The position numbers and the translations under genes were made by a program. The notes below the pieces were generated by a model, which saw nothing but the letters and a program-made list of their open reading frames with translations, searched no databases and had not been told where the DNA came from. From Raillietiella orientalis (taxonomy: Eukaryota), in assembly GCA_036172245.1 (NCBI GenBank), contig JAYWIR010000013.1, positions 1,302,001 through 1,366,000 of the forward strand: a DNA stretch of 64,000 nt. Direction: 5' to 3'. Numbering within the stretch: position 1 is the stretch's first letter; each line of letters starts with the position of its first letter. This document shows, piece after piece, positions 24,001 to 53,900 of this stretch.

Positions 24001-27000
24001 ATGCAGTGTTTCTGGTGAGTCTACCCTTGTAAGTGTGTGTGTATTCATATATATTTGCATCTCCAAACAATGTTCACATAATCCTTTTTTTGTTTTTAAA
24101 TCTAGTTTTAAGTGATTGTTAGTATTTGATTGTTAGTAAGTGTAGAAGCGAATCCTATTTTGAAGCTTACATTTTAGGAAACCTTCAAAACGTCTTTACG
24201 AAAAGGAAAAGTTGCTCCTCCCGAGACAAGAAGTTCGAGTGCACCCATTAATTCCACACAAGGTTTGTGAGAATATGTATTTTGTGTGAGCCAAGTTATT
24301 TTTGTGTTATGGATGGACAATTTCTGCTGTAATGATGGTTAATAATGACCAGCACCAAATTGTTTTGATTAGTAAATGTCCTCATTATGAATTACTCGTA
24401 ATTCCCTAATGGTAAAGCACTGTGCCTATTTATTGTGAGTGGAAATCACAGGTTATGTGGCAAGTCAATCAGGAATTTATGATTTGGCATAAGCAAAAGT
24501 TCTGTTAATTTTGCAAACAATATTTTAGAGTGCAGATGCAAATATTTTTCCAGGCATTGTTCTCAGCCACTATGGAATGTGTGTTACAAAATTTTACATT
24601 CTCTCTCCTTTCTAAAGGAATTTGTATTAGACATATGCGAATTATGCATGTTATTTTCTGCTCAAAGGCTGGGTGCATAACTAACAGCATGTGACTTGAA
24701 CTCATAAATTCCTAAGCTTTTGTAAAAACTTTCTCATGCAGTTATTTCTTTTTGTTAACATGTATATGGGATTAATAAATAAATATAGTTCAGAATCAAT
24801 CATGCTTAAATGAAAGAACTGTTAACATTTATCTCAGCATGTCCGTCTTTAAATGAAACACATTTTGAAGTTCAACATAATTAAGATGTAATTTTGATTG
24901 CTGTCTCACATCTAAAAATATTCAAAAGTTCATTATTAATAATAATTTAAAGCTCCATTCATAGGATAAGGATTCTAATGTACAATAAATGTTATTTTAT
25001 ATTTTCATACTATTGAGGAATATAGAAATGAATGTTTTCCTATGTAAGAATGAAAGTTGGCACTTCTAATCAATACTTTGCATATATAAAGTCTTTTGTT
25101 CAAGCATCAGGAGCATGGAGAATTTTGTTGCTTACTCCTGAATCACTTTTGGTATTTAACATTCAATTTGGATGTAAGGTTTTCTTATTGGAAGATTCTC
25201 TTGTTGAAACATTTTAGTATCTATCCTGTAGCAGTTAAAAAAAATTTTTTCTCTCCAGAATACTTATACTAATTCAGATTCATGCCCGAAGGAAGTTGTG
25301 TTTTGTCTAGATGGAAGAGATCCTTTGACCCAGTTTCAATACCAGCAGGTGAGGAATTCGTAAGTAAATTAATTTTTAAGATAGTATGATTTTTTACCTG
25401 TTGAATAATTTTTCTCAATAAATAATAATTGCATGGCAATCTTGATTCTGCATAACACCAACTCCACAACATGTGTCAAGAGTCATTTGGTGAACTGTAC
25501 TATCTTTACCATGTGGCCCCATGACTTATATATATATACATAGCCAGTCTAAATCCCTAATCACCATCAATCATTGTGCAAACTCACATAAGTACTCCCA
25601 GGTATACAGAATGTAGTACCTATTGTTATCAACATAATATCTAATGTGCTTCATTTTGCCATTTGCTAGGCATGTGTTTGCACTTTGCATTCAGCAACCA
25701 TTCATCAGCATCCTTTAATATGATTCAAGCAATAGTTGAAGACAATGTGTTTTGCTGTAATAGACAAAGAAACTGGAAAACAAGGAACACAGAGTCAACA
25801 AAGCTATTTTGAATTGCTATCCCAAAAACTATACCTCAGCTGGAACAATCACTGCATTATAAAACATGCCTTGAAGAAGCCACAGGATCAGCAAGACAGA
25901 ACATACAGTATTGCATGAGAAAACCTATGGAACACTGACAGACATAAACCAAGAATGTAAAGAAACTGAGATACTTTGGCTTATAGAAAACTGGAAAGAA
26001 GGACTAAATATCTTCAAACATAACCAACATTTTATGTGTGCAGGATTATCTATGCAAAAAATGCATCACACTAACCAGAAAATCCAATCTCCTTAACCCA
26101 ATGGCCAACAAATTTGCTGCAAGAGTTGCTCCAAATACTCAGACATGAATCAAACAAAGCAGAAAAATATAATGGTTCATGGACTTTGAAGGTGCAACAA
26201 GGAAACTAATCTATATAAGATATTTATACATCAAACAAAAGCCAGCCATCCAACATCCTGCAAATAGTCCAATGCAGCAGATTTGTACGAAAATCAGATC
26301 ATAGCAATCAACTTCACAAGATACAAGAAACCTGCATTTGGTCCTTTTCATTGGGCACTTTAACAATGGAATTGCGTATGATTCAAACATATCCCAGATT
26401 AGTCAAAATCATGTTATGCAATAGTCATGGCTGATTGGGAATGTGCTTATTCAGAACTCTCAATAGGCAGATAGGAGAGACATCCACAACCATGTTTGCT
26501 GTACTGTATTCTAACAATAAAATAACGAATTGCACCAATTAGTTATTCTTTTATGGTAGCAAGTAGGGTTAGTGGTTTTAATTGCTCTTATAGACTTTAA
26601 TATTTAAAGAAAGGTGATAGGCATAATATGAATAAATCAGTGAAGTTTACTTGATGATGTCGCATTTTCCATGATTATATGAATATTTAATAAGCAGATG
26701 CTTAGATGCAATTGATGTTCTTGAAATGAACATTTCTGATTTTTACTTTCATTTGAAGCAGATAGTCAAAATTTCATACTTTGATTATGTTATGAGATTC
26801 TTGGTTCTGTCATTTTACAGTAAAATTATTTTTCCATTCTAAATAAATACTTTTGGAGCTTTTAGTTTATGATTTTTAATGGAATAACTTATATTCTAGG
26901 AAGACATTCAGCACATTAGTTACAACTTGGATATCATCAGGAAGGAATGGAGTCAAAAGAAGAATGTAATGATGAATCACTTGGAAGGTAAAATCTCACT

Positions 27001-49115: not shown

Positions 49116-49139
49116 GGATTTTTTTTTTTTTTTTTTTTC

Positions 49140-50130
49140 AAGAGAGGCGATGGGGCCTCCACAGCAGCAGAGGGGAGGGGCCAAACAAAAAGAAAAATAA
49201 ACAAAATAAAAATAAAACAATTTTGAAGGGATTACAGTCTACTGGGCGAGGTCATCCGCATCCTTTGGAGGATGCTGGCAAGCTCTTGCTTAATGTAAAT
49301 GTCCAGGGGGCGCCGTCTGACCGTTATCCGTAGAAGGAGAAGAGCGAAGTGGATGGCGTCCCTGCTCTGGGTTCCTTCGCTGGAGTCGATCTGCGTCGCT
49401 ACGATTCCACGGAGGCAGCACAGTGCTGCAAGGGCTGCGGATGGCTGCAGGGCGTCCCGCACAAAGAGAAGCCGCATTACGTCTCTGGGGTGGCCGCCGG
49501 GGGTTCCTAGGGTCGGGGCAAAATGTCCCCAAAGGAGCCGGGAGGCAAGACCACTAGGAGGTGAGGAAGGTCCCCACACCTTGCACAGTTTGGTTCCACA
49601 TACCTGTGTCCGGTGATGCCGGCGGGCGTTGCACGGGAGGCCCAATGCCGCAGCAGCAGCGCCGACTCCTGCCAGTTCCAGGGGAGGATGCGGGTGTTCA
49701 TGAGCACCAGGAGCCACTGAAGGTCTTCCTCCGGAATACCCAGCAGCTCGTCCCAGCGCAGAAGTCATCGAGGTGGGGCCCTCGGGGTCGCAGCGTCTGC
49801 AAGCTGAGCCGTCGTCCACTTGTCTAGTCTTTTTCTCCTACCGGAGATTTCGGCACTGACTTCCCATTTTGCTGCGAGGTTGCTGCTCATGTATTCCCTG
49901 AGGGAGAGCAGAGCGGCGGCAAGAAAGGTTTTGCCCTCCCACGCACTCTTCATGGGATCTCTCAGGATCTCCCGGAACGTGCAATTGTTGTTGCGCGCAT
50001 ACAGGGAACGTCGCATGTGTTCCACGATTGGCTCCTGAGTCCTTGTCCTTGTGCGAATGGTTTCCTGCAACCAGGCGCAACTGTTCGCGGGGCGTCACGA
50101 AATTCATCCGTTTTTCCTGGCCAGGGTGGC
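49140..50130 (-). mobile_element. L1/Tx1-clade ORF2 C-terminal fragment plus start of 3' UTR (related subfamily)
   Basis: LLRWDELLGI...NTRILPWNWQ...CARCGDLPHLLVV (zf-RVT), then AALAALCCLRGIVA...RDAIHF...IKQELASILQRM, homologous to the 45 kb and 1.8 kb copies. Confidence 0.75.
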
Positions 50131-50359
50131 CACCTGCCGAAGGTGCAGTCCGCAGTAGATGAGACTGAGAGGACGGCGTGCAAGCTGAAAGATCGTGTCA
50201 CCGGTATATCTTATGGGACGAGACGTTGCCTCATATTTTGAACCATTGCATGAGGCACTCTCATCCCTACACCCTGCTAGGCGCGATGCCATAATAGACA
50301 GGATGCTGGCAGCAGCGGAAGATACCGCAGGATGGCAGTTAATCTCCACGAAGAAGCAC

Positions 50360-51100
50360 GATGAGTTGAAGTTGTTAGGTAAGGGATGTTATGAGTGAAC
50401 TGATAGGAATGAGTGGGTTATAAGTTCGGTCCGGTAATTAGGATAAGGGTGATGGTGGGGACGTGAGTGATTTATCCTAAGAATTGGGGTTCAATGAGGA
50501 GGAGAATGGAGTTGATGCTATTTCTATGTTATTTAAGTGGGAGAATATATGGAATGTTGATGAGTGGGTGGGCAAGGAATGCGAAGTACAGTTGTGTTGG
50601 TGTGATACGTTCAGTAGCTTAAATGATTTCTTATGAAGTGTGTATGATTATTGTGTTGATGGGTGTAGTAATGTATATGGGTAGATATAGTTTAAAGTTC
50701 GAGATGGGGAGTGCTTGATGTTTTGTATGTCAGGGAAATTGGTTGTGCGAATTCTTGCATGTTTCGAGGAAGTTAATCCTTTAGTTTATGATCTTTCGGA
50801 AGGTGAGTCCGAGTTATTTTCAAGATACAAAATGGAGTATGAATGTTTGCTTTCTGTTTTTGTCAGAATATAGATTTATTGTTTACTGAAGGTTGTTGAC
50901 AAGGCGAACGTATATAAGGAGTGGGGTTAAGGGTTTGATTGTAATGTATGTGATTATATGATTTCGGAGAGTTTTGCCGCGGAATTGATGAGGGGTTGGT
51001 GTATATGGGTTAGGGCGAGGAGTTTATTGTATTGTAGTTTTTATTTGTTATTATGCGGAAGAGGGGTGGTGATGATAAGGTTAGGGAAGTAAATGTGGGT
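50360..51100 (+). pseudogene. ND1: NUMT of mitochondrial NADH dehydrogenase subunit 1
   Basis: In invertebrate mitochondrial code: KLLGK...GMLMSGWASNAKYSCVGVMRSVA*MISYEV...DLSEGESELFS.Y.MEY...IMWFRSVLPR, matching ND1 GWxSNSKY, AQTISYEV, EGESELVSGFNVEY and WVRxTLPR. Strong G+T skew, frameshifts and a CAA>TAA stop. Confidence 0.92.
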
Positions 51101-51103
51101 TAG

Positions 51104-51294
51104 AACTGATACCTAACTGTAAACAGCTACTCCGAAGTCAACACTCTCTGAAGACCTCATACAAGTTAAAAGATGACTACGCACCTACGCAAGATTAGCA
51201 GTCATTTCCAAGGAACAAGGGGACCTCGGCACACCACATCTACAAGGTATTTCCAACTAGCAGAGGGTGTTTCACGAGCTGAACACCAAATACC
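51104..51294 (+). pseudogene. Endogenous CRESS-DNA virus (circovirus-like) Rep N-terminal fragment
   Basis: N*YLTVNSYSE (RCR motif I, WCFTLNNY-like), then after a small duplication/frameshift EDLIQVKR*LRTYARLAVISKEQGDLGTPHLQG (motif II; PHLQG at 51234-51248). Motif spacing is about 30 residues; motif III and the helicase are absent. Confidence 0.7.
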
Positions 51295-51299
51295 TCTCC

Positions 51300-53900
51300 C
51301 TCTCCAAGTATCGGAGCCGGTACGAGACGAGGAACGAATTCCATAGCGTTACATGAGACATCGGGGGGCTGGAGAAGAAGAACATTGCCCGGATATCATC
51401 TGCATCCGGCACGAAGGTCAGGTTCAGTCCAGAAAACGATGGAATGGGATCTTTGCTCTGTGGTTGGTCATTCACTCACTTCAGCAACGTCCTCCATCTT
51501 CAAGATATAGCGCTATGTCCAGGCGGATGCTCTGCCGCAGTTCCTGATCCCAATTTCCCTCTTTAGAACTCCTTGCAGGATAGCAGCGGCAGGCACTGTG
51601 GTTCGTGGAACTGTGGATGCCTTCACGATTTGGGGCATCGAAGGTCAAGCGCGTTACAAAACTGGAGAGATCATGGTCGCCTTCTCCATGCCACTATAGA
51701 GAAGGCTGGAAATAGCTGTATCGGGGTAATGAAAAACCTAATCCTACATCTTTGAAAGATGGCGAACGACTCATCCTACCCAGAAGTCACCATGGAGGAA
51801 ATGAAAATAGGTTCTCTGGATTGCTGAAAGATGTGGGGGCAGGACCCAACAGTGTGCCAATCTCGCACTGCCAACAGTACCTGAGTGCCAACCTACTCAC
51901 TTTTCAAGAATTCACGCTACTGATTCGGGGAAAAGGAATGCTTCCTGCTTCATTCCAGAGCAAGATGAGAGGGGTGCCGAAGGGAAGAGGCCTAAATTAG
52001 GTCAACCAATGGAAGCCGATCGCTATCCTAAATACGGATGCCAGGTGACTGGCCAATACCAAAGGGTCGGCAGAGCATCATGCCGACGACGACTTCTCCG
52101 TACTGGACATGCGCGGTGCCCAAGCGACGCGTTTCTGACAACGTGAAGTGAGCCAAGAAGCCATCGGTTACCAGCAGTACGTTGGCATGGACCTGGAGAT
52201 TTGCTTCAGAGGAGATATTTTATACGGTGGACCATGGAACCTCCTGGGATTCCTGAAAAACTGGGTCTCCGGAGGCATTCCTGAGAGTACGTAAGGATCG
52301 TTAACAAGGAAGCTCTTTGCGAGGTCCAAATCATCAGGCAAGAAACAGAAACCCTCAGCGTGGAAAGGGGTATCCGTTCAGGAGGCGCTCTCATTCCGAT
52401 GCTTTTCGTCATGCACACGGAAGGGGCATCGTCGTTTTTCAACAGCGGACTCCTGCGAGGCAACCAAATGGATGAGGAGGAGCTAACACTCCGAGATCAT
52501 GCCGATGATCTTCTACCTAAAGAGCGAGAAGAATCAAAATGACATGCCTGGATGCAATAAGCTACCCAAAATAAGGACTTCGCTTGGTTATCAACGCCAA
52601 TCAATCGAAAATCATGCCCATCGGGATGATGGATGTCTCCACATTGAGGGATCATGGATTCCGAGCAGTGGACTTCGTAAAATACTGGAAATTGATATGG
52701 AATACGCATCCAAACCGTCAACAGTGTGGAAAGAATTCCTGTGAGGGTCAGAGGGAACGCGGGAGAGTATCTTCGGTTCGACTTGAGCATGAAACAGAGG
52801 ATCAGCCCGTGGAATGGCTTTCTGCCTGCCAAGGTGCTCTTTGGAGACACTTTCTGCCCAATGGGCAAGACGACACGCATGGAAGCAGAACTGCAAAGGA
52901 AACCTTGTATGGGCGAGAATCTGCACCGAAGATGAGACTCAAGTTTCTATGCTGCTCGCGAGAGGAAGGCGCGACCGTGGGAAGCTCACTAAAACAATCC
53001 ATGCAAGTCACGGAGGCGCAGCATCTCCTGAAACTCGCCGGGGATTGGGAAAAGCGTTCGTTTGCGGTTTGCGGAACCTACCCGCAGTTGTGGAGCAGCT
53101 CGAGCAAATTGGAAAATTGGGAGTAGGTGAGCACTTACCCTAACTGTTAGAGGTGAACCAATCTAAAAATAGTGCCTTGTAGAAAGAGAATATGGAACGA
53201 AGAGCTGGCCTTGACGATTTCTTGTTTCCTCCTCCATTCCACGGGAGACGTGGCAGTGGATGCACTCGGATTGAACATCGGAGACCGCGAAAAGTTCACT
53301 ACGAGTGGCAATCGATGGGATTGCGTGCCTGGCAGAGAAAGAGACCGCGATGCTCTCGCCACATCTGCTGTCAGCTGCTTCGGGATTCAAAATTGAGCAT
53401 GAGAGAGGTTGGAACAACAGTCTTGACGAGAGACCTGTTACCTAATGAAGAGCTCCTCACATCTTATCACTGTGGATATCCGACTGGAAGTTGGAGGACC
53501 CGAGACTGGATGGGAAATAGAATGATGAGCTTTGCACGGCATGTGGAGACAAGGGGATCCGACTCCATGTGCGCACCTGCCCAACACGACACTGAGATTG
53601 AAGGATTCAGGAGGAGACGAGTCTGCATTATGGAACGAGATTGGGAATCCTAAAAGGGTTGTTTGATAAGGAACGGCGTCGTCTCTCTATACAATCCAAT
53701 GGTGCGGACGGCAATCGCCTCTTCTTCACGAGTATCGTGAAGAGAAGGATGAAAATGAGAAAGGTGAGAAAAGCATCTCAATTCTTCTTCTGCATTCTGC
53801 ACCCCCTGAGTGCATTCAGGACTCCTTGGCTGTTTCATTCCCCCTTTTCCTTCGAGATGCTGAGGCTCCAGAAACGAGGTAAGTGACCAGTGCGGAATCT
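51300..53900 (+). mobile_element. Degenerate L1/Tx1-clade ORF2 (RT through C-terminus), a different family
   Basis: WKPIAILNTDAR (~52010), RGIRSGGALIPMLF (~52366), HADD (52498-52509, YADD position), LVINANQSKIM, LCCSREEG; many stops and frameshifts. Confidence 0.8.

Follow-up and report, generated by a model that had tools for sequence, protein, structure and literature searches.

The window analysed in this work is a stretch of 64,000 nucleotides of the Raillietiella orientalis genome (G000:C13:1302001-1366000, within a 210-Mb assembly). On its plus strand four pieces follow one another: the 3' end of a LINE-like ORF2 (50183..50360), an old NUMT of the mitochondrial ND1 gene in the sense orientation (50360..51105), a decayed 5' fragment of a CRESS-DNA virus Rep gene (51101..51263) and a 5'-truncated, decayed LINE ORF2 that includes the reverse transcriptase (51260..53760), all of them diverged by 20-40% from their nearest relatives. 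The NUMT and the Rep fragment abut directly, with a few bases of overlap and no gap, and ND1, Rep and the right LINE are read in the same sense. On the minus strand, the array is preceded by a 5'-truncated LINE-like retrotransposon (49120..50184), whose poly(A) tail appears on the plus strand as a T run at 49120-49139; it is ~80% identical to many genomic copies, with homology ending at ~50184, matches a minus-strand ORF with a reverse transcriptase at another locus (L192) and is probably a LINE. The left neighbour of the NUMT has 13 other matches in the genome and is 72% identical to two of the compared loci (L184/L185) up to 50356-50360; its CxxC...HILNHC pattern suggests that this Cys/His motif region is the C-terminus of an ORF2. 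The right LINE begins at about residue 293 of a 989-aa relative and runs through the reverse transcriptase, being split by another repeat near 51424-51778; a relative of it (L169) carries Pfam RVT_1 and Exo_endo_phos domains. Neither a target-site duplication at the right LINE and the locus nor a poly(A) end of this LINE was found, in a locus that is itself ~30% decayed. Since a Pfam search with 15 long six-frame read-throughs of the flanks gave nothing useful, the identities of the flanks were taken from their genomic relatives. Insertion of the NUMT and Rep into a single LINE, which they would have split, was rejected, as an ORF2 C-terminus lies on the left, while the piece on the right starts upstream of the reverse transcriptase.

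Pfam NADHdh (E 3e-20) identifies the G/T-skewed stretch as a pseudogene of ND1; aligned over 747 columns, it has 70% identity to the intact host ND1 found on contig C320. The copy begins at roughly codon 61 of the gene and stops close to its 3' end, about 30-40 nt short of the present ND1 stop codon, and it carries stops and about ten indels; its distance is 0.32/0.17/0.46 at the three codon positions, and its rate of private G>A change is 14 of 95. The piece is thus homologous to mitochondrial DNA, located in the nucleus and pseudogenised, and it belongs to the most divergent ND1 copies compared. Its alignment ends at 51105 against the present mitochondrial DNA and, weakly, at 51115-51122 against two older NUMTs. 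The genome as a whole is rich in NUMTs: a query of 8.4 kb of mitochondrial DNA gave 313 first-look candidates. Short matches of the first ~100 bases of the mitochondrial query to five loci (L019/L020/L048/L071/L144) were discounted as flanking repeat. The host mitochondrial DNA bears rrnL, ND1, nad4 and nad5 on one strand and cob, the cox genes, atp6 and nad2 on the other, which appears to be an arthropod-like layout, and between ND1 and cob there are two similar tRNA-like repeats (L005:2370-2520). Tryptophan is encoded there by TGA and TGG in a ratio of 25:22 on the ND1 strand and 32:8 on the other one. A near-whole mitochondrial genome also lies at ~53-67.5 kb of C50 (L045, L046), inside a contig of 1.19 Mb; its ND1 is only 94% identical to that of C320 (L042) and C152, with differences mostly at third positions, so that either the host has two mitochondrial lineages or this copy is a giant NUMT of rather recent date.

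The A/C-rich segment at the end of the NUMT had been described in the sequence-only reading as encoding RCR motifs I and II of a Rep protein, and both are indeed present, in two frames: N*YLTVNSYSE (motif I) is read in the frame starting at 51050 and KR*LRTYARLAVISKEQGDLGTPHLQG (the motif II segment) in the frame starting at 51051, so that a frameshift must lie between them. In all, the fragment contains two in-frame stops and two frameshifts (at ~51130-51145 and just after motif II). It ends near 51263, where the homology to the LINE ORF2 takes over from ~51260 on, so the feature does not extend to 51294 as was initially proposed, and it lacks a start codon, motif III and the SF3 helicase; no nonanucleotide origin was found at the ND1-Rep locus. 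Pfam Viral_Rep matched none of the three single frames of the fragment, which is also absent from the Viral_Rep matches of the genome-wide Pfam scan, while a DNA profile (nhmmer) built from 56 natural Rep copies of the same genome identified 51101-51263 in the window with E 4.6e-16 and gave no match in the reversed window. A natural Rep copy used as protein query against the genome finds the fragment as well (E 0.0026, 46% identity), and the tblastn identities to genomic copies are 46-52%. At the DNA level the fragment is single-copy, and in the tree, which comprises own-genome copies only, it falls within a clade of 18 rows with a support of 97/96. Its GC skew is -0.23, compared with -0.10 +/- 0.08 for the family (n=60) and with +0.68, the opposite sign, for the ND1 strand; the A/C-rich composition is a trait of the entire Rep family. 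Judged by its HUH endonuclease homology with RCR motifs I and II and by its embedding in host chromosomal DNA (a 4.5-Mb contig, LINE flanks, stops and frameshifts), the assignment of the fragment to an endogenous CRESS-DNA virus Rep is solid, and the minimal claim of such a fragment joined to an ND1 NUMT is thereby borne out. A second Rep fossil occurs in the window at 25640-26310 (plus strand); it is longer and more decayed, spans the N-domain to the Walker A region, is recognized by the DNA profile (E 3.4e-14) and by tblastn, belongs to the same 18-row clade and has no NUMT adjoining.

The fragment is one of many. The Pfam scan revealed at least 91 Viral_Rep matches in the genome, 79 of them above the cut-off and many with open standard-code frames, and a protein query gave 121 Rep matches at E<=10; all 91 Viral_Rep loci and 20 further stretches were taken into the comparison. 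Intact members of the family possess RCR motif III and an SF3 helicase, and an intact copy matches Viral_Rep and, weakly and under the cut-off, Pfam RNA_helicase (E 0.0012). The nearest database Reps, mostly unnamed, are 30-37% identical to this copy over the full length; in the viral contig search it retrieved three distant Reps (25-30%), and no relative of the copy nearest to the fragment was found there. The endonuclease domain of an intact member matches PDB entries 7kii (E 3e-14), 2hw0 (5e-10) and 2hwt (6e-5), and the match to the full-length 7lar chain ends at residue 110, leaving the helicase unmatched; we take 7kii, 2hw0 and 7lar to be Rep of Circoviridae and 2hwt that of a nanovirus. 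The designation 'circovirus-like' holds for the endonuclease domain only. The polarity of the family's replication origin is of the cyclovirus type: of 63 copies, 32 have an origin core upstream on the strand opposite to Rep, and none has one on the Rep strand. One family ORF gave a weak Circo_capsid match (E 9e-5, under the cut-off). Most copies carry, 3' of motif III, a short A/T-rich intron with a median length of 46 nt (GT in 58/69, AG in 56/72 and both in 51/76); the GT-AG intron pattern was registered in 29 of 76 copies, as against 6 of 76 in two controls. Of 8 other copies in the clade of the fragment, 3 have both intron ends in the aligned columns (5 when judged by eye), and the short aligned rows displayed no copy that cleanly lacks the intron. 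The origin layout, together with the retained intron, suggests that the copies derive from DNA, and the intron and the integrated origins point to a nuclear Rep lineage spliced in the nucleus; since the fragment ends before the intron site, the evidence for splicing comes from the other copies and applies to the family.

Both stop codons of the fragment, at 51107-51109 and 51174-51176, are TGA and stand in columns where relatives have Trp, exactly as first noticed, and this had led to the more far-reaching proposal that the source read TGA as Trp, being a mitochondrion-associated replicon or a Rep residing in mitochondrial DNA. The codons of the family speak otherwise. At seven Trp columns in 96 copies (503 codons) we counted 396 TGG, 9 TGA, 9 TAG, 3 TAA and 86 other codons, so TAG and TGA are equally frequent; a pair of TAG occurs in one copy, and a pair of TGA in none of the 96. 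TAG is a stop in translation table 5 as well. Among 16 clade-mates, the two Trp columns (32 cells) contain 22 TGG, one TAG, no TGA and 9 other codons; among 98 other copies, the second column has TGA five times and TAG four times. The fossil at 25.6 kb, which adjoins no NUMT, shows TAG in this column (25733-25735), as read from the DNA and the tblastn alignment, the codon alignment being unreliable there owing to frameshifts. The fragment itself is the only row of 108 with stops at both N-domain Trp columns. Under a decay model with the rate of the NUMT (~0.10 per site), the chance of two TGA is ~0.010, and under a mitochondrial-code model with the host Trp usage it is 0.13-0.24; the resulting likelihood ratio of 13-24 in favour of the latter is an upper figure, because only 2-4 bases separate the first TGA from the junction and because it was this very pattern that led to the choice of the locus. 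As the NUMT alignment reaches 51105 and, weakly, 51115-51122, the first TGA falls where the boundary is ambiguous, and it may be mitochondrial rather than viral in origin. One AGA codon occupies a column with Ser as its most frequent residue (19/83), which suits table 5; the other AGA codon of the fragment is in a column with Arg or Lys in near relatives. Of 21 loci with ND1 or other mitochondrial sequence, the near-whole mitogenome copy of C50 among them, none matched the Rep N-domain; one helicase piece was noted at L145, ~7 kb from the NUMT of that locus. Lineage-wide use of TGA for Trp, presence together with mitochondrial DNA and independence from the spliceosome, the intron being a family-level trait, were none of them observed. 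With TGG in the related copies and no link of these to mitochondrial DNA, the outcome is the one that the sequence-only reading had itself named as refuting the mitochondrial-code idea. Most likely, then, the two TGA stops reflect ordinary decay and not viral use of the mitochondrial code, and the simple alternative of mutations from TGG to TGA is to be preferred; a double TGA being about a 1-in-100 event under decay, the mitochondrial-code idea is made unlikely rather than excluded.

No second ND1-Rep junction was seen beside the other ND1 copies examined, and two other joins of Rep with mitochondrial DNA were found. On C4 (~51.1-52.1 kb; L052:1100-2075) an origin and a Rep are joined directly, at the 3' part, to a 97-nt atp8/atp6 NUMT of 78% identity, and this Rep retains the intron and has TGG at all of its six Trp codons. 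On C9 (~5.023 Mb, minus strand; L144:3155-2990) a 47-nt piece of 16S rRNA, 94% identical to the present mitochondrial DNA, splits an older, decayed Rep fragment (profile E 6e-4), which resumes after it; the 16S piece is a later, young nuclear insertion. Within 6 kb of the latter site there are two more Rep copies and a 1-kb NUMT of the cox2 region. Three more NUMT pieces are situated within ~2 kb of a Rep (L098, L151, L162). In all three direct joins the ND1/rRNA-coding strand is collinear with the Rep sense, for which one common polarity in 3 of 3 has a chance of 1 in 4. Uniform placement predicts 0.03-0.05 direct joins per 110 loci, and one was observed in the 91 unselected loci (C4) and three in all; the enrichment is suggestive only, because C4 is the single unselected case and Rep and NUMT inserts alike are concentrated in LINE-rich DNA. 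That viral and mitochondrial DNA are co-captured above chance in this genome, as three direct joins of one polarity may suggest, seems to us rather unlikely, though likelier than the mitochondrial-code reading.

Considering these data, we think it probable that the fragment is a nuclear fossil of a standard-code CRESS virus, joined to a NUMT and neutrally decayed. Its source would be a standard-code, nucleus-replicating CRESS-DNA virus lineage that entered the arthropod-like genome around a hundred times, and this particular copy would have shared the nuclear life cycle. The viral and mitochondrial pieces would have been united in the nucleus amid piled-up LINE fragments, either through capture of both by end joining at a single chromosome break or through later insertion of one beside the other; complex inserts from mixed DNA sources are reported at breaks in yeast (PMC11372161). 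The locus would then have decayed neutrally, presumably with no present function, and the TGA codons would have arisen by ordinary G>A change of Trp codons, the first of them possibly having been supplied by the mitochondrial side. The main rival concerns the way the join arose and keeps the same virus and the same decay: a LINE reverse transcriptase might have switched templates from LINE RNA to viral Rep RNA and on to the 3' part of an ND1 transcript, leaving a tripartite chimeric retrocopy. Such an event would account for the common sense and close abutment of ND1, Rep and the 5'-truncated LINE, for the end of the NUMT shortly before the present ND1 stop and for the shared polarity of the three joins. 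The right LINE, however, has neither a detectable target-site duplication nor a poly(A) end, the family copies keep their intron and origin, i.e., are DNA-derived, the mitochondrial piece of C9 entered an existing Rep at a later time, and a polarity shared by all three joins has a chance of 1 in 4; we regard template switching as unlikely.

Far less probable is that the fragment is the only trace of a CRESS replicon expressed in mitochondria under the invertebrate mitochondrial code and carried to the nucleus with ND1. The two TGA with their likelihood ratio, the direct join to mitochondrial DNA, the AGA in a Ser-rich column and the precedent of cyclovirus CN9E, whose Rep was proposed from its sequence to use translation table 5 (PMC8622408), would suit this explanation, but it is opposed by the absence of TGA from the clade-mates, the parity of TGA and TAG across the copies, the family intron, the possible mitochondrial origin of the first TGA and the lack of Rep in the C50 mitogenome copy, on C320 and beside other ND1 copies, in addition to the selection of the case for its looks. 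We give still less credence to a non-coding Rep scrap carried passively behind ND1 in ancestral mitochondrial DNA and moved as a single NUMT: the high divergence of this NUMT means that its source mitochondrial DNA is extinct and beyond inspection, which leaves room for such a scrap, but the fragment has the A/C skew of its family, opposite to that of the ND1 strand, and the nearest NUMT lineages run into ordinary mitochondrial sequence with no Rep. An assembly artefact at the junction appears equally improbable. The contigs of sequencing run X1 (the single run listed, share 0.07) cover 12 of 30 bins, with none crossing the ND1-Rep junction and none over 51005-53500, but they hold 50330-50624 letter for letter; the junction is a unique sequence inside the 4.5-Mb contig, its parts are similarly decayed, and a NUMT that is 30% away from the present mitochondrial DNA is not mis-joined organelle DNA.

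Endogenous CRESS elements are common in invertebrates, with 93 circoviral or CRESS sequences reported from their assemblies (Dennis et al., 2018, PMC6069186), and Reps interrupted by introns have been noted (PMC6186406). The fragment resembles the former elements in being Rep-derived, fragmentary and of an uncharacterised lineage, and differs from them in its direct fusion to a NUMT and in the at least 91 matches within one genome. Similarly, it shares with complex NUMTs and mixed-source break insertions the presence of several foreign pieces at one nuclear site, whereas the partner here is viral DNA (PMC11372161). No description of a NUMT-CRESS fusion was found in a literature search that covered titles and abstract openings, with most subscription papers outside its scope. 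Among the papers listed in a further search, CN9E was the only case of a claim linking CRESS viruses with the mitochondrial code; unlike the fragment, it is a whole exogenous genome, its claim is based at least partly on an ATA start, and it has a GT-AG intron of its own (PMC8622408).

As it stands, the locus adds one more viral fossil and one more NUMT to the genome. It also provides a worked negative: where TGA and TAG are equally common in the sister copies, a TGA at a Trp column of an endogenous Rep is no evidence for the mitochondrial code. The mitochondrial-code reading, if true, would be one of the rare indications that a DNA virus is expressed within the mitochondria of animals. A genome that combines some hundred Rep fossils, from an intron-bearing and unclassified lineage, with hundreds of NUMTs is good ground for a test of co-capture.

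Repeated arrangements of both kinds of sequence were encountered in the course of the comparison. On C110, C159, C226 and C262 (L007-L015), tandem units ~12-16 kb apart consist of an rrnL-ND1 NUMT, ~83% identical to the present mitochondrial DNA, followed by repeat DNA; the units contain no Rep, and their candidacy as a Rep-bearing replicon was rejected. At C152:1-2475 (L043) an intact rRNA-ND1-cob piece is joined to a long satellite array with units of ~277 bp. Rep copies, too, form clusters, on C68, C4, C40, C72, C33 and C81 (L047-L055), in which they are 2-3.5 kb apart and accompanied by repeated origin cores, the clusters of C72 and C33 having a common spacing of 2878-2879 bp.
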